From: Amoebophrya sp. A120
Lineage: Eukaryota > Protista > Dinoflagellata
DNA: 64,000 nucleotides
Reading direction: 5' to 3'
Assembly: GCA_905178155.1 (NCBI GenBank)
Contig: CAJINV010000013.1
Coordinates: 2,422,281-2,486,280, forward strand
A model generated the notes under the pieces. The model was not told where the DNA came from and searched no databases. It saw only the letters and a list, made by a program, of their open reading frames with translations. Below are positions 9,701 to 53,241 of the stretch, piece after piece. The translations under genes were made by a program, and so were the position numbers. Position 1 is the first letter of the stretch, and every line of letters begins with the position of its first letter.

Positions 9701-10373
9701 CAGTCCGCAGCATTCGCCGGGGGTGAGACATCTGGAAGCAAGTCCAGCGGCAGCAGCGTTGCGAGTCCCAGAGAACTTCTTGACCACAACAGAGACCGCA
9801 TCTCAGACGGAAGAAACAACTCTAACTGCAAGAAGCCCAACAACCAACAAGACGAGGCCTGCTTCGTCGCGGAGCCACCAGAAAGTTCTCCGGATTACCA
9901 GGAGCACCAGTGTAGTTGGTGCGTCGTCTTCGCAAAACCAGAAGCGCGTCGGGAAAAAACAGTCCGGAGCGACTGGTGCAATGATCTCGCCGTCTGCCTC
10001 TCCTCATTTGGCACATGGAACTTGTCCCATTTGCCTGCACGCCTACGACCACAAAGTATACACACAAAGTTGCGGGCACGCATTCTGCGCTGGATGCATC
10101 TGTAAATACTTGGAGCAGGAAATAATAAATCCGAATTACAGGAGTACGGCTGCGTCGTCATTGTCGACATCAACAAGGCAGGGGGGACGAGCAGGGAGAT
10201 CTTCTATGGCTTCGCCAAGAGGTAGTGCGACTTCTTTGGCCAATCGGAATTCGTGCTGCCCGGTCTGCCGCACGCCGGCGCTCTTGGTCACCCTGCGTAC
10301 GCCGGATGGATTGCTGCTGATGCAACATTTGGAGTTGTTTCAGCAGGTCGCATCGCAGTCGCAGATATACTAG
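6765..10373 (+). CDS. C3HC4 RING-finger protein with long low-complexity regions, 2 exons
   Basis: CPIC...CGHAFCAGC...CPVCR near the C-terminus; exons 6765-7453 and 7700-10373 join as SFNRNESS. Confidence 0.8.
7454..7694. mobile_element. Introner, family B
   Basis: TATCCAAGAAA / TTTCTTGGATA, perfect TSD AATCG. Confidence 0.9.
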
Positions 10374-11111: not shown

Positions 11112-13650
11112 ATGCCGTCGTCTAGTATTTCCGGCGCAAAAAATGCAGCCGCACCGCAGGGTGATTCACCCGCAACACCCCTCCCCCCGCTCGCCGCGTT
11201 CGCGACCACCCACTGCGACTACCGAGCGGCCTACATTCCGCTGTTTCTCCAAAACCTCGGAAACGAATGGCACCCGGAGACGAACCCGGACGGCAAGGTT
11301 GCGCTGTGCGTCGCGGAGAACAAACTGATGGAGGCCAATTTGCAAGACCGGATTGCGGAAGTGTCGCTCGGGAAGATCATGACGAAGCTGCAGAAAGATG
11401 CGGAGAAAAGGCAACGCAAGAACTTTTATCTCTGCGGTTTTGGCGGATGCTCTTCGTCCTCCAAAGAAACTTCTGCTTCTGACACCGTTTTGAAAACGAA
11501 AACTGGCGACTCAACCACGGACGATGCCGTTTTGTACCACATGCCGAGCTCCATGCTGCATTACCACAATTTTTCCGGATCGGAGGCCATTCGGGCGGCG
11601 TTTGCGACTGTGCTTGAAAAGTACGTTTTCAACACCGCCTTGGAATTGATCTCAACGCTACCGACAAGTATGAAAGTCGATCCCGACTGCCTTTCCATCA
11701 CGAACGGCTGTACTAGTTTGATCACCAGCTTGGCCCGAGTAATTTGTGAGCCCATCGAGGGACGAGACCAGGAGCCAGAAACGAAACCACCGAGGACCCA
11801 GGAATCCTCCACCGAAATTGACGATGTGCATCTTCTTGTTTCGAAGAAACGACGTCGAGATGCGGTGATGTACTTCACCCCCCGCTACCCAGGTTTCGCC
11901 ACGGACATTACCGGTTTCGGGCAGGTCGCAAGGGTTGGGGTTCCGCTGGCGTTCAAGAAGAAAAAAGCAATGGACAAGGAAGATATTAGTACAACAAACA
12001 ACATGGATAGTAGAACAAGCGACGATTGTTCTACTTCTCTACAAATAGAGTGCAGTCTTCCGTCCAACGAAACGCTGGACCAGTACTTTGAGGACGATTT
12101 CCCAATCGACAAGCAGCACAACGTATCCTGTGCAACAGTATCGTCCTCGTAGTATATTGCCATTGCAGTCATGATGCGACACAAATCTATCTCTCTACCT
12201 CATCTAGCATGACAAAGGGCGTTTTTTTTTTGAGAAAATTTGTAATGCTATCTGTGCTAGTGCTAGTTGTAGTCCTAGTGTAGTGCGATACAATTCTGCT
12301 GCAATGCATACAGCTGCAACTTGAAGGCCTTGCTTCTGTGCAGCCCGGACAACCCCACGGGGACGGTGTGGAAGCGCGAGGAGCTGGCAAGGATTGTGGC
12401 ATGGTGTCGGGCAAAACAAATCTATATCCAGCAAGAAACGCCCATCCCCATCCAGTTTCTGCATGGGAAGCGCTGGACTTGTTTGATGCATGCTTTGCAT
12501 GATAAGTTGGATGGGGATGCTGAGACTTTTTCTGTGGATAGTCTATCTGCTGTCCGACGAAATTTACGGCGCCTCGGTTTTCGAGGAAGTCGGCGAGCAG
12601 AGCGGCGGGGATGAGCGCAACAAGAACCGCGAAACCAAGCACCTCAGCTTGTGTAACGTGGCAGACTGCACGTTCTGGGGGCTCTCGAAGGACTTTGCGA
12701 GCAGCGGCTCCAGACTCGCCTGCGCGTACTTTCCGAAGCTGCACCAGGGTCGTTCGAAGCTGGGAGAGATGTTCCGAGAAGTGAACATGGTGAATTCTGT
12801 AGCGAAGTGAAAAAAATCACTCTGCTCCTCATATTCAAACATGGCGGATCTGCATACACAATCATACAGAATTTCTGTCTTGCAGGAAGGACAAGGACGA
12901 ACTGCAGCCAGATTGCTCTCAGTCCGTGCAGAGGCGGCGCCGTTAGGGGCTAGCGGTTTAGGATGGCAAGTTTGTTCCGTTTTCGATTTGGGGGGTCCCG
13001 CCGGGTGATTTTTCCTCACAATATTCCGTCGGGTGCATCACCGAGCACGTTTTCGCCGAGATCTTGGGGGATACGAGTTTTATGACGTCGCACCTGGGGA
13101 ACGTCCGGCAGTGGCTGAAAAAGCACTCGGATCTGGTGGTGCAAAAGTTGGAAAGTTTGAAGATCCCGTACTGCAAGCCCTCGGCGTGCGTCTTTCTCTG
13201 GTGCGACTTCTCCGAATTCGGCATCCCAGCATTGGCGTTGTTTCAGCTGCTGATGGACAATACCAAATGCAAACGAATATCATGTTGGGACTGGAATGAA
13301 AGTATTGCAGATGATCATGTTGTTCTTCCTCATGCTCATTTTGCATGATTCGCGACGTCTGTCGTGTTGCACTAGCAAGAGCATCACATCGAACTCGAAG
13401 TTAGTTCTTTCACGAATAAGTACCTCCTGCTGCTCCCAGACATGTCGATTTGCAATGCATAGACGAGTACGGTATTATGTTCACGCCTGGAAACGAATTT
13501 TACGACAAGAATGTTCCGCAGCAGGAAGAGGCGCGGGTCTCCGGTTGCTGGATGCGAATTTGTTATGTTGCCGCTGAAACAAGGGCACTGCAGCACGCGC
13601 TTGGAAAATTGGAGAAGTTTGTGTTGGATCAGCGCAGTAGACAGTCCTGA
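11112..13650 (+). CDS. PLP-dependent class I/II aminotransferase (ACC-synthase-like), 5 exons
   Basis: WHPETNPDGKVALCVAENKL, LLLCSPDNPTG, LLSDEIYG, WGLSKDFASSGSR (PLP Lys), PSACVFLWCDF, IMFTPG, WMRICY; four introners interrupt it. Alternative start 11049. Confidence 0.85.
12124..12310. mobile_element. Introner
   Basis: TATCCTGTGCA / TGCAATGCATA; flanks CAACG/CAGCT; frame restored before LKALLLCSPDNP. Confidence 0.7.
12425..12540. mobile_element. Introner (shortest here, 116 nt)
   Basis: TATCCA..CATCCCCATCCA / TGGATGGGGATG..TGGATA; flanks ATCTA/GTCTA; gives KQIYLLSDEIY. Confidence 0.85.
12800..13023. mobile_element. Introner, family C-like
   Basis: GTGAAAAAAATCAC / GTGATTTTTCCTCAC; flanks TTCTG/TTCCG; gives VNSVGCITEH. 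Confidence 0.75.
13261..13461. mobile_element. Introner, family A-like
   Basis: TACCAAATGCAAA / TTTGCAATGCATA; flanks GACAA/GACGA; gives LMD(E/K)YGIMFTPG. Confidence 0.8.
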
Positions 13651-24509: not shown

Positions 24510-25375
24510 CTGAAAGCCTCGGAATTTTGTAGCCGAGGCAAGTGCCTCAACTCCCACGAAGGCTGTGTTCCGTCGCCCTGTTGGCCAACGCTCTTGCAAT
24601 ACGAACAAGAAACGCACTCGGTTTGTCATGCGCAGGGCCTTTCCGTAACTTTTTGCCGTTTGCCGGCAACGTTGCAAGCTGGGGACGAATCGGATCTATG
24701 TAGCGCAAGTCGCTGCTGTTCTTCCGAACGCAGCCCCTGTGACGAGCACGATGCTACTCGTGCGTGACAAATGAATCTGCGAATTTTCCAGCTGAGGCAA
24801 GTGCCTCAACTTCCGTTCAAGGGTTTTGTCATGGAGGAACGCGAGATGATTCGTGCATGACAAATCTCCGAATTTGGAAGTTAAGGCAAGTGCCTCAACT
24901 TCCGCCTACGAGCCTTGTCATGCACGAACACGAGGAGGCTCGTGCATGACAAATCTCCGGACTTGGAAGTTGAGGCACGAGCCACCTCGTCGTGTTCGTA
25001 CGCGTCAAAGGCCGTGAACGGCAGTTGAGGCACTTGCCTCAACTTCCAACTTGCTTCCGAGGTTTGTCATGCGCAAGAAGCTTCTTTCAAGTCCCGTTCG
25101 CGGCCTTAGGCATGTACGAGGGATCGGGAGCGTGACGTGGTTCGTGCATGACAAACCTGGTACTTTTGGAGTTGAAGAAAGTGCCTCAACTCTCGTGCCG
25201 GGCCTGTGTCATGCCCTTTCTGGACATTGTTCCTGCATGACAAACCTCCGAATTCGGAAGCTGAGGCGCCAACGCCTCAATTCTCGGCCCGACCCTTTAT
25301 TGTCATGCACGAGCGCGACGTTGTTCGTGCATGATAAGTCTGGGAATTTAGAAGCTGAGGCAGGTCGTGCCAAGT
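24510..25375. repeat. Degenerate tandem array of ~90-bp units, each with a hairpin core
   Basis: AG(T/C)TGAGGCAAGTGCCTCAACT-like core at ~24531, 24790, 24880, 24968, 25023, 25170, 25260, 25353, flanked by GCATGACAAA / TTGTCATG. Confidence 0.75.
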
Positions 25376-25923
25376 GCACGGGAGTTGGGGTTTGACAATG
25401 ACTTCCTAGAGGGCGCCTTTTGAGCCGACTGGCTCACCTGGGTTTCGCGGGCTATGGAGGGGCGCTCCAGGTGCTATTCCAGGCATGCGCTGCTGGTGTA
25501 GCGCTCCATCTGTCACTTCACTGCCGTGCGCTTTTGTTCAAGCAGTTGCCCTGTGCCCAGCTGCAGCGAGCGCGCGCCGCCCGAAGGTGCCGCCAGACAC
25601 CGGCGGCGCTACTTACTTACACGCCTCTTATTTCATACTTACGCAGCCCCACTCTTAACAGATAGGCAAGCTCTAAGCATGGAAGTGCCTTTTATTTTGT
25701 TTTCTTTTTTTGGTAGCTAAAGATATCACAGTACCAAAGAAGTCACTTGCGTCATGTTGTTTTCTTTTTTTTGTTTTCTGCTTTTTTTTCTAAATGAGAC
25801 AAAGAGCCCTTCCCTAATTTCTCTACGCGAGAAGTGCATTGAAAGAGTTTTCTCATTGCGCGTTCTATTCTGTGTTTTCGTGGTCTGGGTGTTGAGAAAC
25901 CTGAACCTTTTGGAACCCAGCGC

Positions 25924-26928: not shown

Positions 26929-27208
26929 TAGGCATTGGAAATATGTCTGTGTCGGGAAGAGTGCAACTTGTGAGGCTGGCTTAGAGTTCTACTAAAGCAA
27001 TCTGTATTGCATGAGCAGCAAGAGGAGTACAGGCGTTGCTATGCGAAGAGGGCACTTGTCATGCAGGATAGGCATCAAGAATCTCAATCTCGCAAAAAAT
27101 GTGTGATGCTAGGGCACACCTCACGGAGGCAGAGCACATCATGGGTCATGCAAAATATGCATGAAAAACGTTGCACCTATGTAGACCCAGACATCTTTGC
27201 ATTTGATG
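26929..27208. mobile_element. Introner, family A
   Basis: ATATGTCTGTGTCGGGAAGA / GACCCAGACATC; interior colinear with 41919-42183. Confidence 0.75.
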
Positions 27209-28270
27209 GAATTGGAGGCAGTGCAAAAGTCTCGTATAACTGTGCTCCGGCGGAATTATATTTTTGTGCAGGTTTCACAGGCGTCGACGCACGCTCACAC
27301 GAACACGCTTTTAGAAGTTTCTGCGTCACAGTTTTGGTAGTTGAAATATGGAAGGGTCCTGTTTGGTGGATGGTATGTAGTGAGGTCACGAACGTTCTAA
27401 TCTAGCGATCTTTTTGACATGTCTCATCCAAAACGACCGGCAGTTTTCAAGTGGCCGGAGGTGTTTTTGAGCATAAAAGATTTCCATTTATCAAGCGGCC
27501 GAGGCTTTGTTGTCAAAAAAGCCCGAGCCAATTCTATCGATTCACGCTTGATAAAACGACGCAGCGGAGCCGGCAAAAGGGGTGCCCTTCTGGGGCGCCC
27601 GCCGCATCTGTTTCCGTCGATTTGGGGCGCCCAAAAAGGGGCGCCCAAAAAGCAGCACTCCGGAAAAAACAGCGAATCCGGATAGTATGGGCCTCATTTT
27701 GGCCCACATTCGGGCCTCGCAAAAGACACCACCAAAATCCGCCACTTCAGAGGCGGACTGAAGGCCAGAAGATGCGGCATTTTGCCAAAAAAAAACAAAA
27801 AAACAAAGTCCGCCAAAAGCAAAAAGCCAATCCGCATGCTATGGGCCCGATTTGGGGATCCCAAGGGTCTGTCCTTGGCGCGGGCCCTTGCGGGGCCATA
27901 GCATGCGGGGAAGGTTTTTCGATTCGAAACCAAATGGAGGCCAGCCCTGGAGTGAGATTTTTAGCGATCGCCGTGCCGTCGTGCATAACATTACTCACGA
28001 TGGCACGGTGGGCAGAGAAGTTGCGTCTTTTTTGGCGTAAAGGCAAAAAGACCGCCATGACCTCACTACCTCCGCGGACGCGGCTATTATTGGTAGTGGT
28101 GCATCTGCATGTTTATATTTGTCACCGGCTGCCTTCTTTTACCTTTTAGCTTTGGTCTGGTGAAGAACAGCGCGGAAACATAGTCGTGACCCATCGCGAC
28201 AACATCGAAAACTCTTGCAGTGAAAAACGCAACTGGTTAAAAAATGCATCTTAAGTAAGTAGTGATCTTA

Positions 28271-28972: not shown

Positions 28973-31550
28973 TGCTGGCTCCGTCCATGACAGACAGGCT
29001 ACTAACTTTGACTTTCGTCAATCCTGTTCAATAGAGAAACTCGTGTGAAAGTCAAGCCCACACCATCAGCGATCGCACATGGTCCAAAGCCGGTCTTATC
29101 TGCAAATGCAATTTTTTGTTTAGTGTTTCCATAAAAACAAGGCGTCGATGAAGGTGCAGGTGAAGGATGATCACGCGAAGGACCAAAGCGCGATCTACTC
29201 CTGAGGAGGAAACTGCAGGTAGGAGCAGTACGCGAAGACGTCTTTTTTGATTCAAGCTACTGAAAGCAAAGTCGGACTGAGTTTGTTGAAGAGAAATTGT
29301 GTTGGTTTTCCACCCTCATAAATGTAATCTTCAGGTCGAAGAGGAAGAGGGTTTCACACTTCCGAGAGTGATAAGAACCCGACCCGACTGGAAGCGCCTC
29401 ACACTCCTGACTTTGATCGATCATTGCAAAACTCAACACGTGGTATGATGCAGTTCGAAGCAGTAGCTGCAGGAAGATGCGCGCACTAGTTTTACTGTTC
29501 TTGTAATATGAGCTAGTGTGTGTGCTGACTTTGGTCGATCATTGAATGAGGCGTGTCGTGACTGACTCAGTTGTCCTGTTATTCAGAGCAGTAACTGTAT
29601 GAAGACGCGCGCACTTTGCTTGCAGCTAGTGCAGCAGGGCTTCAGGGTTTACTGTCGTCAATCGGGTTCTAGGGTTTAGAACTTTCTTTAGTTTCATCTT
29701 TTTCACTCATTTGTTGTAATTGTAAGGCTACTACGGAACCCTGAACGAGACGGATTACGAACAAAGCTGCGCAGAGTTCATGCCGCATAAGTAAAACGAT
29801 AACGAAGCAACTTATAAATCAAGCTTTATGATTAAGAACCATCAAGTGGTCGGAAGATAATATTTTTTTGAAGTGCTGGTTGGAAGTAGAATTCATCACA
29901 TTCACAAGCCAAGAGTGGCTTTGCACATCAGAGAAGATATCAACACAGGCCAAGAAGTGGACATAAAATGTTTCGCAAAGAGTGCCTCTGCGCAGGCGAA
30001 AGCCAGACACGGACAAAATTGTTATCTTGCTGAACGGGGCAAAGCTACCGCCTCTCAACTTTGCTACTCATTGCTGCTGTTTACTGTTCTAGCCCGTTGC
30101 CTAGGTGTCGGTGTGTCTGTGTGTGCGAAAAAATATCTGGCACAAGTTGGATTTTGAGAGCAGCGCGAAAAAGGAAATATCTGGCACAAGTGCGAAAAAA
30201 AACCTTTTCTTACCCAAGAAGTTCTATTTTGAGAGCAGGCGAGGGCGAGAGTCCGGCGCCGAGGTGGGCGGAGAGATTGCCCACGCCGGGCCGCGTGGGC
30301 GGATGCGCATCGGAGGGCCCGCCCTGTCGCGGCCACGCGAGAGACGCCGGGCGGAATGAGTGGCCTCGCACGTTGAAACCTGGCGAGGCGGTAAAAACGG
30401 GGCCCGGGTCTACAGGCTCGGCCAAATCCGGACGCCCCGAGTCTGCGACGGCGCCCCTGCAGCGTGTTCCCGGATTGGCCCGGTCGCCTTGTCTCTGGCC
30501 CAGTGTGTGAGTGTCTTGCCTCCTCCCCCCAATCAATGGGCGGGGCGCCCCGGTTTGGGGGGGCGCGCGCACGGTTGGCAGGAGGCAGCCAGGCGCGGCG
30601 AAAGGTGTGCGCCTTCCTTCGAGGGCGTCGGTCGATCCATCCTCGCGCCGTTTGCCCCTTGTGTGTCTGTGGCGGGCGCCTTCGCCCAGCGCCCGGCCGG
30701 CCTCGGGCAGCGTGTCTGATGGCCAAGCTTTCGCGCGCCTTCCTAGGCAGTTCCTGGCGCGCGCGTGCCCCGCCCCGGCGCCGGCCCAGAGCGAGCAAGC
30801 ATGTCGGAATGCAGTGGCGCCCTACAATTTTGATAGTTTGGGCCGCTCTCCGCCCATTTTTGTCATGTGCTGGCCCAGCGGTGTTTTGTCATTTGAACTT
30901 TGCCGCCCAATCTAGAACAAGTGAAGAAAGCGCGTGGGCATGTGGAGGGCGGTTTTCGCCACTTTCTACTGACTCGTATGCTCAAGCACATCTTCATCTT
31001 CTCTTCTTCGACTCGGCGTGTTTTTGTACACTTATTCTCGACACCAGACGAGAGCCATTGTTTAAAGTGATTTTCGTTCGGAGGATGGAGCAGCGAGAGT
31101 GAAATAGTCCAGAGTGCAAGATTACAACCATAACGGGGGGTCTACTCATCGGCTTCAGAACTTTTTGAAAACTTTTTGAAAACTTTTGAAAACAGAGAAA
31201 AGCGATGACGCGAAACCACCAAGGTCCGACGCCCTTTTTTGGCGGCGTGCCGTCGTGTTTCGTGGTCATATATGCTGACCGCTAAAAGGCGCGCGCGCTG
31301 CCGTCGGTCACACGTGAACCACGGGCGGAATACTCTCCGCAGACTTGTAATCTCTTGCGCGTTTGAACAGCGTGCCGCCCAAACAGGGCCGCGTCATTGA
31401 TATATGTAGTCACGCATGACAAGGCTTCGATCCACCCCTTCGCGTTTCGCCTAGGGGCAAACGCACTCGGGTGGCCGTGCTGTTTATTTGACCGAGGGAC
31501 AAGCGCACTCGGGTGGCCATGGGGCCTGCCCTCCTCCTTTTCGCCTGGCA

Positions 31551-31629
31551 GGGTCTAGGGTAGTTTAGGGCTTGGCCCTCCTCCTTTTCGCAGGGCTTGG
31601 GTTTAGGGTTTGGGGTTTAGGGCCTAGGG
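31551..31629 (+). repeat. Interstitial telomere-like (TTTAGGG) repeats
   Basis: TCTAGGG, TTTAGGG, CTTGGG-TTTAGGG-TTTGGGG-TTTAGGG-CCTAGGG. Confidence 0.6.
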
Positions 31630-32084
31630 CCTCGGTTCTCAGGCGCAGCGCGCCGGCCTTGAGAAGCGTGTCTGGAGAGATCCAGGGGGTGCGCCCCTGC
31701 GCCGCGTTGCGTACGTTTGTAATTTGCACAAGAAAAAGTGGCGCAGCCGAAGAAGCAAGCTCTGACTTCTGTTGCCTTTTTGGCGCCTGTTCTGACCCCA
31801 GGCACGGCGGCACGCTGCCAGAAAGGAGCGAGACTGTTGAGTCTTCAAAAAGTACAAAAGAAGCGCGACAGACACGAAGCAGGGTGGCACTGCCTGCGAA
31901 ATAGGCAAAGCTCACGGCTCAGGTTTGTTAGTCTTTGCGGCGCCGTGCCGTCGTGTTTCGTGGTCATATACGTTGACCGATAAAAGGCGCGCGCGCTGCC
32001 TTCGGTCACACGTGAATCGCGGGCGGAATCCTCTCGGCAGATTTTCAATTTATTACGCGCTTGAATGGCGTTCCTTCCTGTTTC

Positions 32085-33400
32085 GTGATAGATTTTGACC
32101 CCGGAGCCGGGGCGAAAAGTTGGGTATTTTGCATGCGGCGAATAACGTGGGTGGTAACTTTATCCACGGCGGCACCGCGTAGGCAAAAAAACGCGTTTTT
32201 CCAACTTCTGCTCGAATTCTGAGGCAAAGCGCGGGCTGTGCGTCCATTTTGAAAAGTTTTTTTTTTGCACTTTTGCACTATATGCGAAAAACCAAAACCG
32301 ATGGCAGTATGCCGCTTTTCTGGCCCTCAAGAAAACGAATCCCGAGCTAATTTCCGAAAAAAAAAACTTTTAAAAAACTTTTTAAAAACTTTCATTTGGG
32401 GCACCAAAACCGTGCCGGTTTCAAGCAGAATCCGCCGCGGGGAGCTTCGAGAAGGGAGGCCAGAAAAAAAGTTTTTTCGGGTTTTTTTCGGGCTCATTTC
32501 GGGCTCACCGAAATAGCACAGGAAAAAAGTCGCACTTTTTGGCCTCCGCCGTACCACCGTGCCAAAGTCAGCACTGCTCCAGCGCCGATGGTATGCTGGT
32601 GGTGTTTTTTTGTTATTTTTTGTCAATGCCGGCACTTTTGCGTCTGGGTCAAGCTTTTGGATTTTTTGGTACTAAAAGTAGCTTGGGCGATGAAGGAAAA
32701 GCTAGAAGCTGAGTTTAGTACTGGACTCTGGATGAGTTGGAGTCGGAGCTCGATGTTGGACGATGGGGCATCACTGCGCTTTTTTCTCGGCCTGATTTCG
32801 TGATAGGTTTGGACCCGGGGCCGGGGTGGGCTGCTGTGTGTTTTACATGCGAAGAATACCGCTGGCGGTAGCATTATCTATGCACGGCGGCGCGGCGTAG
32901 GGTAAAAAGCGCGAGCTCTCGACTTTTGCTCAAATTCTGAGGCAACGCGCGACCTGTGCGCCCACTTCAAAAAGTTTGCTTTGCGCTTTTTCGCTGTATC
33001 TGTAAAACCAGAAGAAACCGACAGCATGGCGCCACTTTCCTGACCTTCAAAAAAAAACTCCCGAGCTGATTCTGGGAAACAAAACTGTTGGAAAACTTTT
33101 CAAAAGCTTTCACTTGGGGCACCAAAACGGTGCCGGATTCAAGCAGAATCAGCAGCGGGAAGCTTCGGGAAGGGCGGCCAGATAAAAAGTTTTTTCGGGT
33201 TCGTTTCGGGCTCACCGAGGTAGCACAGTGGGAGCTTGCATTTTTTGGCCTCCGCCATACCACCGTGCCAAAATCAGCACTGTTCCAGCGCCGCTGTTAA
33301 TTATGTTGGTGGTGTTTTTTGTTATGTTTCGCCAATGCCGGCACTTTTGCGATGGAGGGGGTTCGTTGAGTCAAGCTTTTGGGTTTTTTGATGTTTGGTC
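32085..33400. repeat. Internal diverged direct duplication (~32085-32660 vs ~32797-33400)
   Basis: Shared blocks TTCGTGATAG..GACCC, TGGGGCACCAAAAC.GTGCCGG.TTCAAGCAGAATC, TACCACCGTGCCAAA.TCAGCACTG; also ~31243-31345 vs ~31938-32045. Confidence 0.85.
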
Positions 33401-39805: not shown

Positions 39806-42464
39806 ATGGCTCCGCAGCCTTTCCTCGACCTGCCCACCGTTCTGCTCGGCGACGGGCAGTTGCGGGATGTGGGTAATTTTCACGAAAAGTCGTTCTACCG
39901 AATCTGGACGAAGGACCACAAACTGCAGCACCTGTTGCAGCAAACCAAGATGGCTTACTCGCAGCTGATGGAGCTGCTGCCCACCGACGGGGTTTCGCTC
40001 GGCAAGCAGCACCTGGTGGCCTCGCCCTCGGAGACCGCGGGTCAGAAGGTACGCATGTTCGAGACTGGGATGCTGCTGAATCTTTTGTCCACGGCCGAAG
40101 AAATTTGGAAACAGGACACCAACACCTGCAACATGCTGCAGGAGCGCGCGCAGGTGCAGCTGAACTTGATTCTGGAGGAGCAGAACCTGTACACCTTGAA
40201 GCAGGAAGAACGAAAATTGTTTCAACTGGTCGCGAACCTGATGGGGCGGCACGTGTGGCACCCGGAGGAGTACTGGGACATGGCCTGCTACCCGGACGTG
40301 AAGTCGGTGGAGCGGTACTGGATGGGCGCGCGAATGCTGTTTGACACGACCGTGAACCCCTACGCGGACCTTTCCTACGCCCGCGGCGCGGAGAAAAATC
40401 TGGACGTGACGGACAGCAACTTCCACGCGGCCTGGGAGCGCATCAACCAGGGCAGCGCGAACCAGCGGGACAACGTGTTGGGGAACGTGAGCGAGCACCG
40501 CACGGAGGCGGAGGACGCCCAGCAACTCATGTCCGAGGCGCTGTCGCCCTTCCAGGCCCGCCCCAGCACGCACTACTCGCACAGCGGGAACAAGTTCGGG
40601 CGGAAGCTGAACCCGATGCTGGACTTGTATGACCGGCACTACGCCATGCACCTGCGCCAGCACAAGATCGAGGGCCGGAGAACGGACGGCACCTCCGACG
40701 ACCACCAGCAGCACCCGCAGGGCGCCGCGGGCCTCGGGGACGACCGGGCCATGGGTGACGAGAAGTTGCGGTCAAAATTCGGCCACAAGCAGTGTCCCCC
40801 GGACGCACAGGACTTAGAATTCTTCCGCATTTGCCGCCGGGAAACAGAGCGGACGACCGCGCAGCTGCTGTCCGAAGCGGATTTGCTGAAAAAAGAGATC
40901 TAGGGATTGGAAAAGTCTATGTATCGTCTATTTACGATTTACTGGTTGTAGTATTTTTGCATCACAAACTTTCAATTTCATAAACAAAAAACAAATTATG
41001 AAATTATTTCGGTAATCGTGCTGTGAAGATGCAGGAGCAGGTAAGACTCAGATGGTAGATTTGTGTTTGTCATGCAACAATATTGCGATTACGATTAGTA
41101 CGAGTAACCGATACATAACTTTTCCAATGCATAAGCTCACGACGCGGGAGGTGAAGTTCACGACGAGACGAGCGCAATTGGTGCACAAAATCTACGACAC
41201 AAACGCGAAGTTTCAGCTGTTATCCGCCGCGGAGGCGGACCAACTGAAGTACGAACTGTCCCTGTTGCGGAAGAGACGGAAACTTTTGAATCTGATGAAC
41301 GCGTGTCTGGACGAGATTCGGGAGGGGCGGATCGACTTCTTTGCCCGCATCGAGCTCGTCGACAAAGAGGCCGAGCTGCACATCGCGGTGGACGAGCAAC
41401 TGCTCGCGAAGCACGGAAAGCACAAACCCGCGGAGCTCGCGGCCCGGGTGGCGTGTCACCAGGCGCTGTCCAACGCCTTCAAATTTGACCCGGAGGACGA
41501 TCCGAACTACGCCGACAACGCGGTGAAAAAAGCCATGCAGTGGGACTACAACGCCGCGGACTTCTATGAAAGTGTCAGAATCGAAATTGACAAAATCGAA
41601 AAATTTGTGATGCATAAAATCGATACCAGTTGGAGCCTCAGTTTGTAAGTGGCGCATGACAAATTTCGGGAGCAACCAAATCCAGTCTGTCATGCTGTTT
41701 GGGCAAAGAAGACTGCTCCTGTCGTGCTACTCTGGCAGCACATTGCATATACCCAAACACGCTTACAATCAGTCGCATTTGCCTGCTCCCCAATACAGGC
41801 CTCCAGTGCCCTACATTTTATGCATGAGAAATTCTTTCAACTTTGTCGATTTCGATCCTCACACATCCATAACTTCCTGTTCGACGAGACGGCGCGGAAA
41901 TTGAAGGACCTGCAGGGGTATCAAATGCAAAACTGTCTGGGTCTGGAAGAATGCAACTTGTGATGCTGCGCTTGGATTCCAAAAACATCTGTATTGCATG
42001 AGTACCAAAGGGAATGCAATTTTTGCTACGCTGAGGAGGCATTTGTCATGCGGAATAGGCATCAAGAAGCCCTCAAAAAATCTGTATTGCTAGGGTATGC
42101 ATCACCGACATCGTGGCTCGTCATGCAAAACGTGCATGACAAGTTTCAGAATCTTCCAGACCCAGACATTTTTACAGTTGATAAGGGGGTCAACGTGCTG
42201 GAGTTGGCCGGGACGCCGGTGCCGGAAAAGCAGGACATGATACACGCGGAGCTGGAGCTGCTCAACCTCGCGATGATAGAACTAGAAAGGGACACGCCGG
42301 ACGGGTTGCTGGATGACCGACTGAAGTTTTTGGTGGACATTATCCGAACCAAGATAAAACGCTTGAGGATCGTCGCCATCCAGTCGGCCTATAATCTCTT
42401 CGAGGTGGAAAACGCAAAAAAGAGCTTGCGAGCCGCCTTCCGACAGAATAACATTGTCGCGTGA
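39806..42464 (+). CDS. Hypothetical helical protein, >=4 exons
   Basis: Strong GC3 codon bias; junctions KKEITTREVKF, ADFLFDETARK and LQGVNVLE after removing three introners. Confidence 0.7.
40901..41133. mobile_element. Introner
   Basis: ATTGGAAAAGT.TATGTATCG / CGATACATAACTTTTCCAAT; flanks AGATC/AGCTC. Confidence 0.85.
41565..41871. mobile_element. Introner
   Basis: ATCGAAATTGACAAA / TTTGTCGATTTCGAT; perfect TSD ACTTC. Confidence 0.9.
41919..42183. mobile_element. Introner, family A
   Basis: TATCAAATGCAAAACTGTCTGGGTCTGGAAGA / TCTTCCAGACCCAGACATTTTTACAGTTGATA; perfect TSD AGGGG. Confidence 0.92.
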
Positions 42465-43335
42465 GAAGTAAGTTGTCGACGAGCAGGACGAGGACAATGG
42501 GGAATGGTTATATATTTTGCTTCAGGTAGGCGAAATTCAAATTCAAATTTTACAGAACTTGACTGATGTCCACGCGGACAGATCGATGCTGTGGACGAGG
42601 AGCAAAAGTTGTAGAACCTAGTTATCTGTAATATCTCACCTGCCCTTTATGAATTCTTGTTGTGTCTTGGTATCCCCATGGCACCGTGCTTCTTTTGATT
42701 CTGGGGTTATTAAAAAGCCACCCAAAGTTGTGATTCTCATCTCTCGTCTTACTCTTAGTTACCCTGAAGCGACACATGACATCAAACGCTGTACCCCAGT
42801 GCTGGAACAAAATACTCTTTGTGGTCGATCGCATTTTCGTTTTCATGGAGGAACTACTTCATCACATGATAACACACGTGAATAAAAGCACGAAACAAGA
42901 GCCGCACAGCTCCTTCGTTTGGAGTGTTACGCTACGTTGACGCGTTGCGTTTGCCCCGGTCGAAGAGCTTCCAGCTCTACTTGGTACGACTGTTTTCTTC
43001 CTTTGTCGTCTGACCATCGAGAAAGCGAGGAAAAAAGATAGATTTTCCGAGTGAAAATCTGGGGTGAGTGACGGAAGGCAGGGGAATCGGTAGTACTTTC
43101 ATCTATACGCAGTTTTCTTCACGTTTGTTGGGCAGGCTCCTGCTGAGTATTTCTAGAGATGACTGTGCTCACTGTCACTTCTGATTTATTTGCACTTGTT
43201 CGGCTTCGGAAGACCCGATCTGCGAGCGTGGGAGTAAAATAACGAGCAATAAGAGCACTACTTACCGGCAAAAGCATTGTTTATCGTTCCTAGAAGCCTG
43301 ATGTGAGTCCTTGAGGTTGGTAGGACATTCTCATT

Positions 43336-46245
43336 ATGGCAACTCCTGCCTCCTCTTCTTCGCTGGCGGGAACATCAATCATGTTTTTCCCCAGCGGCCA
43401 CGCAATGGCGCCACCGCAGCCAACAAGCGGCCAGCACGGATCATTTTCCTGTGGCAGTTCTGGTTCTTCGGGGAGCTGCCCGGCGGAGATGTTGACGTAT
43501 GAGTCGGTACATGCTCAAATTTCCGTGTTCGAGGAAATGGTGGAAAACCGAAGGCTCGCGAAGCTCATCGAAATGGACGACCACGTGGGCGTCTCCTTCC
43601 ACCTGGCCACCGGGATCTGCCTCGCGTCGACCATCTTTTTCTTTGCGCAGGTAGCCTTCGTACCCGATCGATGGAGGAATTCCATGGTGATCGCAGGGCT
43701 GGTTACAGGTATAATTGAGATTGAAGAGCAACTCGCTTCATTTTTTTTTCCTGGAAGATCAAGATTGTCTTTTGCGGTAGTCTACTAACCAGCCAGCAGG
43801 ACAGAGAAAGCTTGATTAGACACCACAATGAACAAATAGCGGTGCTTTATATAAATGACAAAATGATGTTGAAAATGATAATGAAGGTGTGGCCTGGCAT
43901 CACTACCAACACATGCAAGAGATCTGGGAAGACACGTCAAAAGCCCCGACCATTTATCGCTACATGGATTGGTTTGTGACCGTGCCCCTCCAAGTGATCG
44001 AGTTTTACCTGATCCTTGTCGCCGCGAACCCAGACGACAACATTTCCGTCCCCGCTTCCCTGTTCTACCGCCTCCTGATCGGCTCCATTTTTATGCTGGG
44101 CTTCGGGTACGCGGGCGAGGCCGAGTGGATGGACCGGTGGGGGGCCTTTGCCGCGGGCTGCTGCTGCTGGGCGTACATTATGTACGAGGTAAGTACGAGG
44201 AAACAAAGATCACTAAATTTCTTTTCATGAATCACTTCTGTGGGTGTGCTCTCGTCGTGCTGCGGCACCCTGTTGCATTAATGACTTGTTTTATATGCTT
44301 TGTACAAGCATTTCGAATTACTCTAAAACGAAATCGCAAACGAACAATATTAAAAGAATAACTTCACACAGCACATGAAACACAGATTTCCTTTGGCGAG
44401 GCCGCTCGCATTTCCGGGAAGATGGGGTTGACCGACCGCGATCTGTTCCTGCGCTTTGTTTCGGGCCGCACCAAGGAGGACCTCGAGGAAGAAAAGGAAA
44501 ACGAAAAAATCATCCAGCAAGCCAAGAACGTGAAAGCCGCTGAGATGATGAAGATGAGCAGCGACATTCACACACCCTCGCTGTTGACCACTTCGGACAA
44601 CATGCTGCAAGACAGCACTGCAGTGTCGATGGACGACAACTTCATGCAGGAGCACAAAAAAATCATGGAGCAGATGGATTTTTCCATCTCCTCCCCGTCC
44701 ACAAACAACAAAACCGCATCAAAGAAAGGAGCCCAGCAGGGTGGTTCTGGTTCTCTCTCCTCGCCCAAAATAAACAACGGTCCGCCGTCGGGGCAGAACC
44801 AGACCCTCGCGGGAGCACTGGTGACCAGCATGTCCTCCGCCTTGCGGGTGGACCAGGTGAATGCCGATTCCGTGGCGATGCAGGACTACAAGAAACCGGA
44901 GGCACAGCTGGCCTTTGAAATTCTGCGGGCGATCTTCATTTTCGGCTGGGCACTCTACCCCATTGGATATGCGGTGAAGGGGGACGGAACCAATATTACG
45001 CAGGGGGTGGAGAACACGTTGAATGGTATCTATGATAGGAACTTACTACAATAGTTCATCTGGGGTCTACATCTACTACCTTTTGTGCAAGTAGTGCAAT
45101 GAAAAACAATAAGTTTCCTTTGCATAGTTGTATCAAATGAAAATAGAAACAACTTTACAGCCGTCTACAACGTGGCCGACTTGATCAACAAAGTGGCCTT
45201 CGGTGGGGCAATCTATTACGCTGCCTGTTCGAACGTCGAGGCCGAGAAGGCCGAACTGTACGCGTTGCGCGAGTCGTTAGACCTGGAGATATCGCGAGAA
45301 AAAAGTGTTACAGTTACACATTTGTTGGAGCTCTTTCTGCATCACAAATTTTCTCTGTGTGGCAGAGAAAACTTGTAATGCGAAGATCATAAGGGAAAAC
45401 AGGAAGGAAATGAGGCTGCCAAGCATTTCCTGCATGAGAAAGGTTGTCTGTGTTGCCGGTCTTGCAACACAATCTGTAACTGTAACACTTTTTTCTTACG
45501 ATAGGAGATGACGCAAAAGCAGTGGCTAAAAAAGCAGGCGAACGGCGGCGAAATAGAAATGGCGGATTGGTACAAGGTATCAAGTGTAAAAATGTCTGGG
45601 TCCTCTGGAAGATTGCCAGACTTGTCATGCATATTTTGCATGGCCCCTGATGGCTGTAATGCATGGCCTAGCATCACATATTTCTAGAAGGCTTCCTGAT
45701 AAGTACCTATTCTGCATGAGAAATGCCCTCTCCGTGTAGACCAAACTGGGCTCCTCTTGCTGGTCATGCAATACAGATTTTTTTCGAATCCGAAGACAGC
45801 GTTGGGGCGACTTGCCGTGGTAGCGCTCGGCTTTTGTATGTTGAGGTCGCCGAAAGTGCTTCCTCGCCCACCCCCCGGGGAGGGGATCCTTGACCTGTGG
45901 CGCTGGGTGCGGGTGTCCACTACATGATGATGATGACAGCGTGACAAGTTGCAATCTTCCAGACCCAGACATTTTTTCAATCCATACACGGCGAAGTTGA
46001 TCAAGCAAGCACGGAAGGAACAAATGATCGAGCAGAAGAGAATGTGGTACAGTGCTGTAGTAGTGTTGATTTCATTTCTACGTCCTTCGTCCTCGTCGAG
46101 TTTTCTTTTTTCGTACTTTCCGATTATTGAGAAACACTAGTACAAGTACAACAAGCAAGTACAGCCCACCATCTTAATGTGACACCACACTACCACCAGG
46201 AAAGCCATGTTCGCAAGTGGTGACGAAGGTGCCGCAGCGAATTAG
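43336..46245 (+). CDS. Proteorhodopsin-type microbial rhodopsin with E-F loop insertion and C-terminal extension, 7 exons, ~537 aa
   Basis: Exons 43336-43708, 43887-44188, 44386-45025, 45161-45289, 45509-45577, 45992-46046, 46200-46245 (1614 nt). Motifs GVSF..LASTIFFF, GLVTGVAWHHY, RYMDWFVTVPLQVIEFYLIL, MLGFGYAGE, GWALYPIGY, YNVADLINKVAFG. Confidence 0.92.
45290..45503. mobile_element. Introner, family D (TATCRYRAGAAAAAAGTGTTACAGTTACA TIR)
   Basis: Perfect TSD GGAGA. Confidence 0.92.
45578..45986. mobile_element. Introner, family A, inverted relative to 41919 and with extra internal sequence
   Basis: TATCAAGTGTAAAAATGTCTGGGTC / GACCCAGACATTTTT..CATA; flanks CAAGG/CACGG. Confidence 0.85.
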
Positions 46246-48414
46246 GCGGCAGGAAGAACGGGATGCTGTGGGGTTTGTGGGGGAACGTGAGATGTACGGA
46301 CTCCGGTCTTCGAAAAGCGAAACTAGTCTACAAGAAAGAGCGGCTCAAAACTAAAGAAAGAGAAAGCCGAATGACGACAGAACGATCTGTTTAGCTGTTA
46401 TACATTACAATCATCAAAGTGCTGAAAAGTTTTACATGGAACACTGAGATTTAGCGCACTATGTATTAGTACAAATAGAAAGGAAGAGGAAGAGCAACAA
46501 GCCTGGCGAATAGCAACGCCAGCCTGCTTACAAAGGCTCTGTATCGGTATCGCAGGTATTCATTCAGAGGCTGCAAAAGTCTCTTTGCGTATCGATCGAT
46601 TTTATGGCGAAAGTAAGGTTGTACCACTAAAACAGTAGTGCTGTACATAGCAAGTCTAGACCTCTCCCTGCATGAGTAGAAGTGTATAGGAATAAGTCCT
46701 TGTGCAGGCTACATCCCTGTACAAAAACAAGAGCCAAGGCCTACTGCGAACTCGATCGAGCAAATACATGTTTTTAGCCGCGGCGCATAAGGTACCACAA
46801 AAAGGAAAAGCAAACAAATGCTCACGCTGACCAATTCAATGTGCAAGACCAAGACTGTGAACACAACGACATTGCACGGCGCCGCTGGCAATGCCGTAGT
46901 CTGACAATGTTCCCACTGAAAGAGTTCGCATATGAAAAAGAGTTGAAATCATGGACAAACTTGCACTTCGACCGCCAAGAAACAGACTAAGTAAGTAGAT
47001 TTTTTCAAAATCACTATACTAGAAGATGAAGAACTAGAAGTAGAACCCCAGTTATGTTCACCTGTGGATCTGGATGAACAATGGTGAGCAGAAAGTAGAT
47101 CATCTCTACTCGGACCACCCTGATCCAGCGCTCGCGTAGTTCGGAGAATGTTGACATTGTGGTGGCGCTATCCAACCTTTTGGTTCATCCTGTAGTTTAG
47201 CCTTGGTGATGGTGGATCATGGCCAAGGAGGTGATCTTTAATACTGAGGGCGCAGAAATGACCGGACTTGGAAATGGGGCAATTTCACACCTGACCATGT
47301 AGGATGGAAGTTGAAATGATTTGTGGTAGCATTGGGATTTGGATTTTCTTTTGTAGTGCTGGTTCCGAAGTTGAAGTTTCTTAACTGCAGACACAGACAC
47401 ATACTTGAATGTGCTAGCGGGTAGTACAAAGTCGTACCGACGGCAGAAAAACCCGACTACACGGTCATCTCCCACTACCAGTCAACGTGCTGTAAGTAAA
47501 GCCAACCTGTTTAGAAGCCTATCAGGATTAGATTTCAATTGTTGTTTTGTACTCAGCGTAGATGTAATTTGTAAATAGAGTCAAAAATTTGTAAATTACT
47601 ATAAGTGTCGCGACGACTTGGTCTTTGAGTGTTTATTTGTTCGTCAAGAACGATTTTACGAGAGCCAAAGGTATAGCGGACTCTTCGTCTGGTTTTTTTT
47701 ATACGGTGTCCTACTACTCAAACTCAACATATATGAAAGAAGCTCCTCTGTAGAAGCTGTTTTTGGTACAGGTACTACTTTTCTAGTCACGATCGACCGG
47801 GGGAAAAGCAGTCAACCTCAACGCGGCTCAAAAGATATACTCAATTTCGTTTCTGTCGTTCGCGGGTATATCTGCGAAGAGTATAGAAACGTTTTTGTGG
47901 TAGGCACAGAAAAAAGTTTAATCAGACACGACCTGGTAGGGTAGCAGTGACATACTTCCTTGTTATTATTTGCTCGTAATCGTATAGTTTTTCTTCAAAG
48001 AAATTTCTAGCACAGCAGGACGAGGGGCCTTGCTGCGAAACATCCTCGCAGCGTTGTTTTATTGGCATTTTTCGCCGAAACACGAGCTGGCAAAGTGAAC
48101 AAAACAAAGTATTTAAGTACATCATCAGAGATATTCCCTGTATTGTTATTGATGTAGAAATCGTTACTATCCGGTACAATAAAGGTATACGGTCGAAATG
48201 TGTTAACCAAAAAAAAAAACCTAACTCAAAAACAAACCTCTTACTCGGACAGAAATTCTCCACTAGCAGGTGGAGCAAAAAAAAAAGGACTTCTCTGGGC
48301 CTATCATCCGGATTCGTTGTGGTGTCTGTACCGAGCCCTCAACTGCACACAAGAGGATTTTAGCAATAAACTCACGAGGCAGGAGGTTCACTTCTCTAGA
48401 GCAAAAGAAACATC

Positions 48415-51400: not shown

Positions 51401-53241
51401 CGAACTGCGAACCTTCTTCAGCCCCGCCGGAGGAAATTATCGCGATTATTGTCAAGTACGCGATTGCGGCCGAGAAAAACCACGAAAGGAAGGCTTCGGC
51501 CCTCGGTGAAGTAGTTCTTGGAAATGTAGTTCCACCGGAGCTGCAGCACGAGGGTAGCGCGGTCGGAGCTGCCGGCGCACCGAGCTGTGACCGCTCCGTG
51601 TGGAGTGACAAGTCGCCGATGGTATAAAGCATTACGGATGATCACGTGGATAGAAGTCGGGAGTTTTCTAGAAGCAGTTCGGTTTTGCTGTTCATTATTT
51701 GCGGGGTAGTGTATTGCATGACGTGAATATTAAGACCTACCTACGTACTCCAATGGCAAATCACCCTTTCAATTTATCGTTCCATCACATCATCTTCAGC
51801 CGCCGGCCGCACGCTACAACTCCTATCACGAGAAAAAAGTGTTACAGTTACACATTGTGTTGCAAGCCCAGCATGACAGACAACCACTGTCGTGCAAGAA
51901 ATGCTTCCGAGCTTCATTTCATACGTGTTTTCCCTTTATGGTCTGTGCATTGCAAGTTTATCTCCCTCTCATACAGAGAAAATTTGTGTTGCTGAAGTGA
52001 CAACAAATGTGTAACTGTAACACTTTTTTCTTGTGACAACTCCCTGTACAATACTACTAGTTCTTCGTATCCAAACAAGCACGGGAACAACAATCCCCTT
52101 TCCGAGTCGCAACAGAGCCAGAGCACGAACTGGCCTTCGTTTCGTGCGTCGGACGATTCGATCGGGTGTGGGGGCGGATGCACCAGCACTAGCGTCGAAC
52201 ACACGGATATCAAACAAAAAAAGTTCGTCACGATCACTTATGCGCATTTTTGCAATACAAAACTGTTTGTCATGCGTAAAAATGCATCACAGCCTAACTT
52301 CGTGAGGGATTTCCCTAGTGTTTCTGCAATCCATTGAAAATTTGTGATGCTAAGAAAATTTGTAATGCAAAGCCTGCAAGTTAGTGACTGTGACAAACTT
52401 TTTTCTCTTCATAACGGACAACGAAGGAATAATGTTGTCGTCTTCCACTTGTTCGCATCTGGATCACCTAGATGGCAGCGACAGGAAAAACGCGTCGGGA
52501 AAAATGGTCCAGCAGGAGCAGCAGGAGAATCTTGTCTCGACGACATCAGTGGTTCACGGTGAAACAAGTACCACCACCACCACCACCACCACCAGCACGA
52601 CCTCCCGACTTCGCCTGGACGCGCACGCTCTGCACGGCCACGATGTCACCATGGACCAGATTACGGAGGAAAACCAAATCGACTTGGACAACGTCAGCAC
52701 TACGCACAACAACTCCGAGCCCTGCTTCCGCACGACCAGCTTTTCCACGAACCTGAGCAAAGACACAACACTCCTTTCCCGGACGGGCAGCAGCACGGTG
52801 GTTTGCGATGCCGCGGCGTTTGGCGCGATGGTGCTAGCAACCTGTACCGATTTGCTCATTTTCCTCACGACCGGTGGAACGTCAAATTATAACGGCTCTA
52901 CTTCTACTTCCACTGCTTGTGCTGCTTCTGTCTCTCGTCGCGGCCTTGTGGTGATTCCGAAGCACTGCCTCTGTCCGACTTTCACGGAATTGCTTTTGGA
53001 GCAAAGTGATTGCAGCTCTTTCTCAAGTCTGAATGTTGGGTCAACGGCGAGCAAAAAGAAAGACAACCCGGCGCATCTTCATGATCAAGCAGGCCTGCTC
53101 GGCAGTTCTTTTGTCGGAATCAGAAAGACCAGCAGCGATCGGCCAGCTGACGAGATCTTCGACCGGAAAGACAAGATCCTGCAGATCGCCGGGAATTGCG
53201 AACACCTCTACGCTGAGGGACAGATTCTGTGCTGGGACTAG
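48415..53241 (+). CDS. MA3-domain (PDCD4-like) protein with probable long C-terminal extension
   Basis: MA3-like helices EKFKVDVTNVLVDYL, LKMDFPRFPELLGKILVRLV, AKKKIKAILSEY, EFIIDSG; GT-AG introns near 49816 and 50330. Linking 51622 to 53241 relies on a weak junction plus two clean introners, so the 3' part could be a separate gene; junction at ~49155-49373 unresolved. Confidence 0.55.
49155..49319. mobile_element. Introner-like TIR element
   Basis: TATAATTATGGCGCGA / TCGCGCATAATTATA; flanks do not match. Confidence 0.7.
51824..52038. mobile_element. Introner, family D, opposite orientation to 45290
   Basis: Perfect TSD ACTCC; ~30-bp TIR. Confidence 0.92.
52208..52413. mobile_element. Introner, family E (AAAAAAGTT(C/T)GTCAC..TCACT TIR)
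   Basis: Perfect TSD ACGGA; gives EHTDNEGIM. Confidence 0.9.
52570..52593. repeat. (ACC)n coding microsatellite (poly-Thr)
   Basis: Eight ACC units. Confidence 0.9.

Follow-up and report, generated by a model that had tools for sequence, protein, structure and literature searches.

A proteorhodopsin of Amoebophrya sp. A120 with an ordinary core and an unusual, family-wide cytoplasmic architecture: a candidate blue-light receptor

Proteorhodopsins (PRs) are treated as compact proton pumps. Residues 50-52 have a role in the PR oligomer interface, and the E-F loop tolerates fusions. In transducer-coupled sensory rhodopsins the carboxylic proton donor is replaced. Eukaryotic, bacteria-derived pumps of the DTE type (D97/T101/E108) are found in the dinoflagellates Oxyrrhis and Prorocentrum, where they are often called proteorhodopsins, and we take them to be xanthorhodopsin-like. 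According to the available text of PMC11603288, the rhodopsins of Oxyrrhis and Oxytoxum carry Leu and are green-tuned. Proton-pump rhodopsins have been described mainly in heterotrophic protists, MALV-II included, with phagosome acidification as a suggested role (bioRxiv 10.64898/2026.04.17.719054, available portion). In green PR, excerpts of PMC4374980 report that a site in the E-F loop moves on photoactivation, and that W34 and H75 form a contact between protomers that is tied to the pKa of D97.

A blue-tuned PR has previously been reported in Amoebophrya; in the available part of that work, Dataset S3A holds three Ameob2 sequences, all with a plain E-F loop (PMC8017926). The motifs of the insert-bearing clade described below occur in none of its eight supplementary files, and the clade is not described in the available portions of PMC11453091, PMC11603288, PMC9601134 and PMC13739731. 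The word 'opsin' is absent from the main text of PMC7789003 and PMC7793755. An earlier note, made from the sequence alone, had missed the published blue-tuned PR of the plain-loop type. The insert type was not found in the published work searched on Amoebophrya and Syndiniales rhodopsins and may sit unnamed in review trees or in the supplements of the 2026 preprint.

The gene under study lies in a 64,000-nt stretch of DNA, referred to as the window, to which all positions refer. Its exon 3 is 100% identical to P0001, an unnamed protein of Amoebophrya sp. A120, which parasitises marine algae, in keeping with the non-photosynthetic parasite that the earlier note had supposed as host. The gene is transcribed and spliced, belongs to the PR clade and has all proton-pump residues intact. 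Its parts are as follows.

43139..46870, +: transcribed span from spliced contigs, with the 3' UTR reaching about 46850-46870
43336..43708, +: coding exon 1; 78-aa N-terminal extension, helix A, in which W34 is replaced by His, and first part of helix B
43709..43886, +: intron 1; 178 nt, GT..AG
43887..44188, +: exon 2; His75 and helices C, D and E, with R94/D97/T101/Q105/E108 in helix C
44189..44385, +: intron 2; 197 nt, GT..AG
44386..45025, +: exon 3; end of helix E, entire E-F insert, helix F and F-G loop, a single block in all four runs
45026..45160, +: intron 3; 135 nt, GT..AG
45161..45284, +: exon 4; helix G with D227/N230/K231, beginning of the helical C-tail
45285..45503, +: intron 4; 219 nt, introner-type with non-canonical ends, inverted repeats of 33 nt at its termini and a direct repeat of 6 nt
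45504..45575, +: exon 5; part of the C-tail, whose E-x-A-D-W motif is common to P0023 and the L002 gene
45576..45989, +: intron 5; 414 nt, non-canonical, introner-type, no placement giving GT..AG, end repeats recurring in the window
45990..46046, +: exon 6; 56 nt by the placement of its joints, part of the C-tail, charged and helical
46047..46199, +: intron 6; 153 nt, GT..AG, read through by the public model P0001
46200..46245, +: coding part of exon 7, ending at the stop codon

The six introns that the earlier note had proposed are all present as joints in the contigs of four out of four runs (X1-X4, two samples of one study), with 178, 197, 135, 219, 414 and 153 bases skipped and no other letters. 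These runs were judged to be transcripts from the spliced joints themselves, the RNA status in their record being a guess. The contigs, which cannot show true ends, start at 43139 in one case and at 43292-43305 in the other three. An X5 contig runs unspliced from 42800 to 45317, across introns 1-3, and raw RNA reads of X9 fall on a repeat only and speak neither for nor against expression. The joined reading frame measures 1614 nt, or 537 aa with one stop, and its product equals P0001 up to residue 523, where the public 569-aa model enters intron 6; beyond that residue the public model was rejected, the spliced contigs giving 537 aa. The read-through of intron 6 (46047-46199) adds a false hydrophobic stretch to P0001. 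The 5' leader of the longest contig holds a short upstream ORF of ~27 codons (43160-43243), downstream of which three of the four contigs begin. Bacterial or host contamination was rejected on the grounds of the introns, the introner repeats that recur in the remainder of the window and the orthologs in other Amoebophrya strains.

With regard to the rhodopsin core, the DTE set, Q105, His75 and the DxxNK lysine are all where the earlier note had placed them, and W197, Y200, P201 and N230 are also present. The principal residues, numbered in the window protein and then as in green PR, are encoded at these positions.

43901: H130/H75
43958: R149/R94
43967: D152/D97
43979: T156/T101
43991: Q160/Q105
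44000: E163/E108
45178: D445/D227
45190: K449/K231

The complete set of D97/T101/E108, H75, D227 and K231 is shared with the A25 ortholog. Against solved structures, the A120 protein lies far nearer to PRs (E 1e-51) than to xanthorhodopsin (6e-9) or Gloeobacter rhodopsin (3e-14), which upholds the earlier assignment to PRs and sets it apart from the pumps of Oxyrrhis and Prorocentrum. Its core is about 48-50% identical to those of blue- and green-absorbing bacterial PRs (PDB 4kly/4knf, 4jq6, 7b03), with DTE, H75, Q105 and DxxNK in common. In the AlphaFold model of P0001 (mean pLDDT 65, core mostly 80-95) the best match of a fold search is a PR (TM by target 0.92), and the model of a paralog matches a bacterial PR with a Z of 27.6; a seven-helix type-1 rhodopsin fold, nearest to PR, is thus predicted. 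The protein likely binds retinal and, judging by Q105, is predicted to absorb blue light.

Unlike bacterial PRs, the A120 protein has an E-F spacing of 181 residues versus 26, a C-D loop longer by 5 residues, a 78-aa N-extension, a 76-aa helical C-tail and six introns. It also departs from 119 short PRs at W34, where 117 of them have Trp and it has His, at E50 (Glu in 118 of 119, here Gln) and at R51 (Arg in 119 of 119, here Val). E50/R51/D52 together read Q/V/A. The cross-protomer W34-H75-D97 contact, which is typical of PRs without defining them, is lacking, and His34 is also found in the A25 ortholog. The plain-loop PRs of Amoebophrya (P0015, P0016 and the three Ameob2 sequences) share DTE and Q105 with the A120 protein but differ from the insert type in their 26-residue spacing, Asn75, long N-extensions and missing C-tail. 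Asn replaces His75 in the plain-loop P0015, P0016, P0025, P0026 and P0036, whose N-extensions measure about 90-160 aa.

The E-F loop spans residues 232-394 (44404-44892), inside the single exon block 44384-45024. Since the distance from the GE motif of helix E to the GW motif of helix F is 181 residues, as opposed to 26 in 96 of the 119 short PRs (the other 23 were not parsed), the net insert amounts to 155 aa. The in-frame insert of ~150 aa that the earlier note had described is accordingly present, and in the spliced contigs judged to be transcripts it is exonic, in one block in four of four runs; what the note had missed is that most of it is A120-specific and poorly conserved and only its arms are conserved. 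The extensions of ~75 aa proposed for the two termini measure 78 and 76 aa. Removal of the insert by splicing was rejected, with one exon block in all four runs and no other joint listed, although contigs drop rare variants and minor isoforms may escape. An origin of the insert as a repeat or an exonised introner was also rejected, its depth in X5 being near single-copy with no repeat listed there. Three segments of the insert can be told apart.

44401..44466, +: N-arm, residues 231-252; conserved, prolongs helix E as a helix
44521..44835, +: middle, residues 271-375; mostly A120-specific, Ser/Thr/Asn/Gln-rich, predicted largely disordered
44836..44898, +: C-arm, residues 376-396; conserved segment running into helix F

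In an alignment with 16 relatives, the N-arm (231-252) has an occupancy of 0.99 and a top-residue frequency of 0.53, close to the 0.59 of helices D-E; the C-arm (376-395) reaches 0.90 and 0.36 and the first 20 residues of the C-tail 0.85 and 0.39, while the acidic patch of the insert has 0.67 and 0.24 and the middle (271-375) 0.23 and 0.09. F246 is kept in 12 of these relatives, L247 in 14, K395 in 14 and P396 in 15; A243 and K244 of the N-arm, found in 13 and 12 of the 16, are R and D in the A120 copy. The A120-specific part of the middle, about 85-105 aa, is predicted to be disordered, and two thirds of the insert are unconserved; among relatives the middle ranges from nearly absent to about 100 aa. 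By alignment, then, it is only the two helical arms and the post-G helix that are conserved across the insert family, and not the middle.

The structural models point the same way. The AlphaFold check proposed earlier returned the PR fold and an extended helix E, with the insert middle at a pLDDT under 50: in the P0001 model pLDDT is under 50 at 289-306 and 324-393, and helix G continues to residue 492. In the model of the paralog P0003, helix E is prolonged over 188-208 (pLDDT 78-93) and followed by a second helix at 222-239 (pLDDT 67-73), with further helices after G. Helix E is thus predicted to reach ~20 residues further into the cytoplasm, with a conserved segment before helix F and a long post-G helix. 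The C-tail of 76 aa is charged and helical.

A Pfam scan of exon 1, the insert and exon 4 gave no family above cut-off, the precomputed domains of P0001 are limited to PF01036, and NCBIfam returned nothing for six proteins. The insert has no family or structural match and no usable Atlas match; a fold search restricted to residues 37-325 of the paralog model barely covered the cytoplasmic part and left it without a match. The 78-aa N-extension has no hydrophobic signal, with a maximum 19-residue hydropathy of 0.74, and the maximum in the insert is 0.82. Because of this low hydropathy and the lack of a Pfam family, the TM0 helix and fused catalytic domain of enzyme rhodopsins are considered absent. 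The A25 ortholog also has C39 and C48 of the N-extension (43450-43479), two cysteines between which an outer disulfide is conceivable.

The names of 20 matches were looked up, and the 11 named insert-bearing proteins all come from Amoebophrya (four from A120, four from A25, two from AT5.2 and one from Ameob2), with no named protein outside this genus carrying the architecture. As to the earlier concern that it might be common among dinoflagellate orthologs, the insert is a family trait, seen among the named matches in Amoebophrya alone. In the direct orthologs P0005 and P0023 the GE-to-GW spacings are 94 and 97, net inserts of no more than +68 and +71 aa, and a length of 150 aa is thus peculiar to A120. 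The other members of the insert clade have spacings of 62-123, the clade inserts being +36 to +97 aa, and the loci L001 and L002 have 115 and 91. P0037 and P0047 are divergent, with unlike loops of 137 and 110, and their place in the tree is unsure.

Trees were built on the membrane core, with the loop trimmed to bacterial length and midpoint rooting, and the rows were reduced from 103 to 69 to 45 by dropping fragments, near-copies and long branches, P0019, P0027, P0037, P0038, P0047, P0066 and P0110 being among those removed. All 14 insert rows cluster together (99/95) in the careful tree, which suggests a single origin of the insert, and the insert clade joins the plain-loop group (P0015, P0016) to the exclusion of bacterial PRs (96/87), so that one acquisition is likely; in the quick tree of 69 rows the corresponding groups are supported at only 86 and 80. 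The phylogeny proposed by the earlier note thus sets these proteins apart from bacterial PRs together with their plain-loop relatives; the trees were confined to PR-like matches, and a midpoint root does not fix the donor lineage. At least five paralog lines make up the family, which is represented in four strains of Amoebophrya; four lines have named members in two or three strains, and three are found in three strains or in two strains plus an unnamed record. Core identity between paralogs across the clade is about 55-65%, and P0015, a plain-loop DTE PR, is encoded in the same A120 genome. By these comparisons the A120 gene belongs to an old family of paralogs, a point that the earlier note had missed, and its product is an ordinary-core PR with an unusual cytoplasmic architecture common to that family.

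P0033, with a plain loop and a long C-tail, adjoins the insert clade (89/90) and hints that the tail preceded the insert. At about 3270-3520 of L002, a paralog split by gene callers into P0063 and P0022, acceptor and exon start stand in three tandem copies at the end of the helix-C intron. PR-like DTE genes were also seen on two giant-virus contigs of 19-20% GC (L004 2001-2639 and L005 2001-2636), with 38-42% identity, one having Leu105 and one Gln105, and a plain loop in L005. The trees were built without these viral genes, and the acquisition may have been by a viral route. A GTDB scan confirmed no locus.

The proton donor varies within the clade. Of the 18 insert-type rows that cover position 108, ten have Glu, five Gln and three Cys, the eight donor-changed rows including P0040, a near-copy of P0010. 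On a 44-row tree this corresponds to four changes, all within the insert clade, whereas Glu108 is found in all 119 short PRs, in nine of nine plain-loop relatives and also in the window gene. Gln108 is found in some distant PR-like representatives as well. In PR-E108Q the decay of the M state is slowed and faint pumping is expected (PMC8387761, available text). All full-length clade members keep K231, D227, D97, W98, W197, Y200, P201 and Q105, the pattern that selection on a retinal pocket would produce.

The reading that we favour, at somewhat short of an even chance, is that the A120 protein is a pump-competent blue-light receptor, which would signal through its conserved cytoplasmic arms while still moving protons. 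Retinal, likely obtained from host carotenoids, would isomerise and set the E-F region in motion as in green PR; this motion would shift the conserved arms and the post-G helix, which may then engage a putative partner or a neighbouring protomer, with the long A120-specific middle as a tolerated, disordered spacer. Several observations favour this reading: the arms are conserved across paralogs and strains and the middle is not; AlphaFold gives the N-arm as a helix continuing helix E; the donor has been lost repeatedly in the clade and in none of the 119 short PRs; no full-length member has lost the retinal lysine or the counterions; the plain-loop P0015 coexists with five or more paralog lines; and W34 of the protomer contact is His, and E50/R51/D52 are Q/V/A. 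The proposed likeness to transducer-coupled and enzyme rhodopsins is a light-driven cytoplasmic change read by a protein partner, but the A120 protein belongs to another clade, has its pump residues intact and has no detected enzyme domain or extra N-terminal membrane helix. Against the receptor reading, the A120 copy keeps D97/T101/E108, H75 and D227, so that nothing opposes ordinary pumping, and departs, at A243 and K244, from two of the most strongly conserved sites of the N-arm; conservation is lacking over two thirds of the insert, and 10 of 18 clade members keep Glu108. Moreover, no enzyme or signalling domain was found in the protein and no partner gene among the 54 window ORFs, of which two have Pfam matches, both distant from the rhodopsin gene, and none an informative match for a transducer. 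The donor losses and long loops could also reflect relaxed selection in a fast-evolving lineage, fast protein evolution being reported for Amoebophrya in the available part of PMC7789003. No phototaxis of Amoebophrya is reported in the available text of the literature searched.

A light-driven proton pump whose output is the gradient, with arms and tail that target, anchor or regulate it, for instance in an acidified endomembrane or the free dinospore, is possible but rather doubtful. It would account for the full DTE set, H75, D227 and K231 of the window gene and its A25 ortholog, and accords with the pumps and suggested phagosome acidification of MALV-II (available portion of the bioRxiv preprint) and with a 5-fold lower dinospore yield of A120 in darkness, from which host effects were not separated (PMC7793755, available text). 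Yet the four donor changes fit selection for pumping poorly in those paralogs, and the genome already holds the plain-loop P0015. That the protein simply pumps as other blue PRs do, its insertion-tolerant loop having grown by neutral low-complexity expansion, seems unlikely: the middle, predicted disordered and nearly absent in some relatives, the insert without a match and the presence of a solved MAR-Arf1 chimera among the matches agree with it, but conservation in both arms and at the beginning of the post-G helix comes close to that of helices D-E between paralogs of about 55-65% core identity, and a single origin of the insert is supported at 99/95. It is highly improbable that the protein acts as a retinal-free opsin, a scaffold or chemical sensor in a plastid-less organism that may have no retinal; the loss of the plastid in Amoebophrya has been reported (PMC7789003, available part) and no retinal-synthesis gene was seen among the 54 neighbouring ORFs scanned, but K231 and the pocket residues listed above are kept in all full-length clade members.

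Extending the receptor reading, it can tentatively be proposed that a horizontally acquired bacterial pump gave rise to a family of blue-light receptors for host finding or infection timing, with a GPCR-like cytoplasmic face modelled as an extended helix E, a long third inner loop and a helix after G, and with paralogs with and without the proton donor as stages of a pump-to-sensor change. If true, a plastid-less parasite would use blue-light receptors to find hosts or time infection. A set of PR paralogs that conserve a remodelled cytoplasmic face and have lost the donor several times would offer a natural example of the step from pump to receptor. The family also shows what size of cytoplasmic insert a PR scaffold can carry, which bears on optogenetic fusions. 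Amoebophrya helps to terminate dinoflagellate blooms. The light dependence of its spore yield has so far been discussed via host chloroplasts, and with the rhodopsin paralogs light sensing by the parasite itself becomes accessible to direct tests.

The introners of Amoebophrya are reported to have non-canonical ends, terminal inverted repeats, short direct repeats and multiple copies (PMC7789003, available part). Introns 4 and 5, both in the clade-specific C-tail, have the same features, namely terminal inverted repeats, short direct repeats where they are joined, ends other than GT-AG and further copies at other places, and the joint of intron 4 can slide by 6 nt along its direct repeat. Many short elements with terminal inverted repeats are present in the window. 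One introner-type element has two related copies in opposite orientation (45285-45503 and about 51817-52043) with terminal inverted repeats of 31-33 nt, and a second family with shared end repeats is found near 2898, 17702 and 24165 and at 26936-27209, 41918-42184 and 45576-45989. Units of 89 nt that contain palindromes are arrayed over 24518-25377, with part of the array inverted, and degenerate direct repeats of 60-145 nt, spaced 700-720 nt apart, lie at 31236-33299 and probably reflect a tandem duplication. A 917-aa open frame at 7620-10373 has a C3HC4 RING finger near its end, and an aminotransferase fragment is located at 12962-13348.
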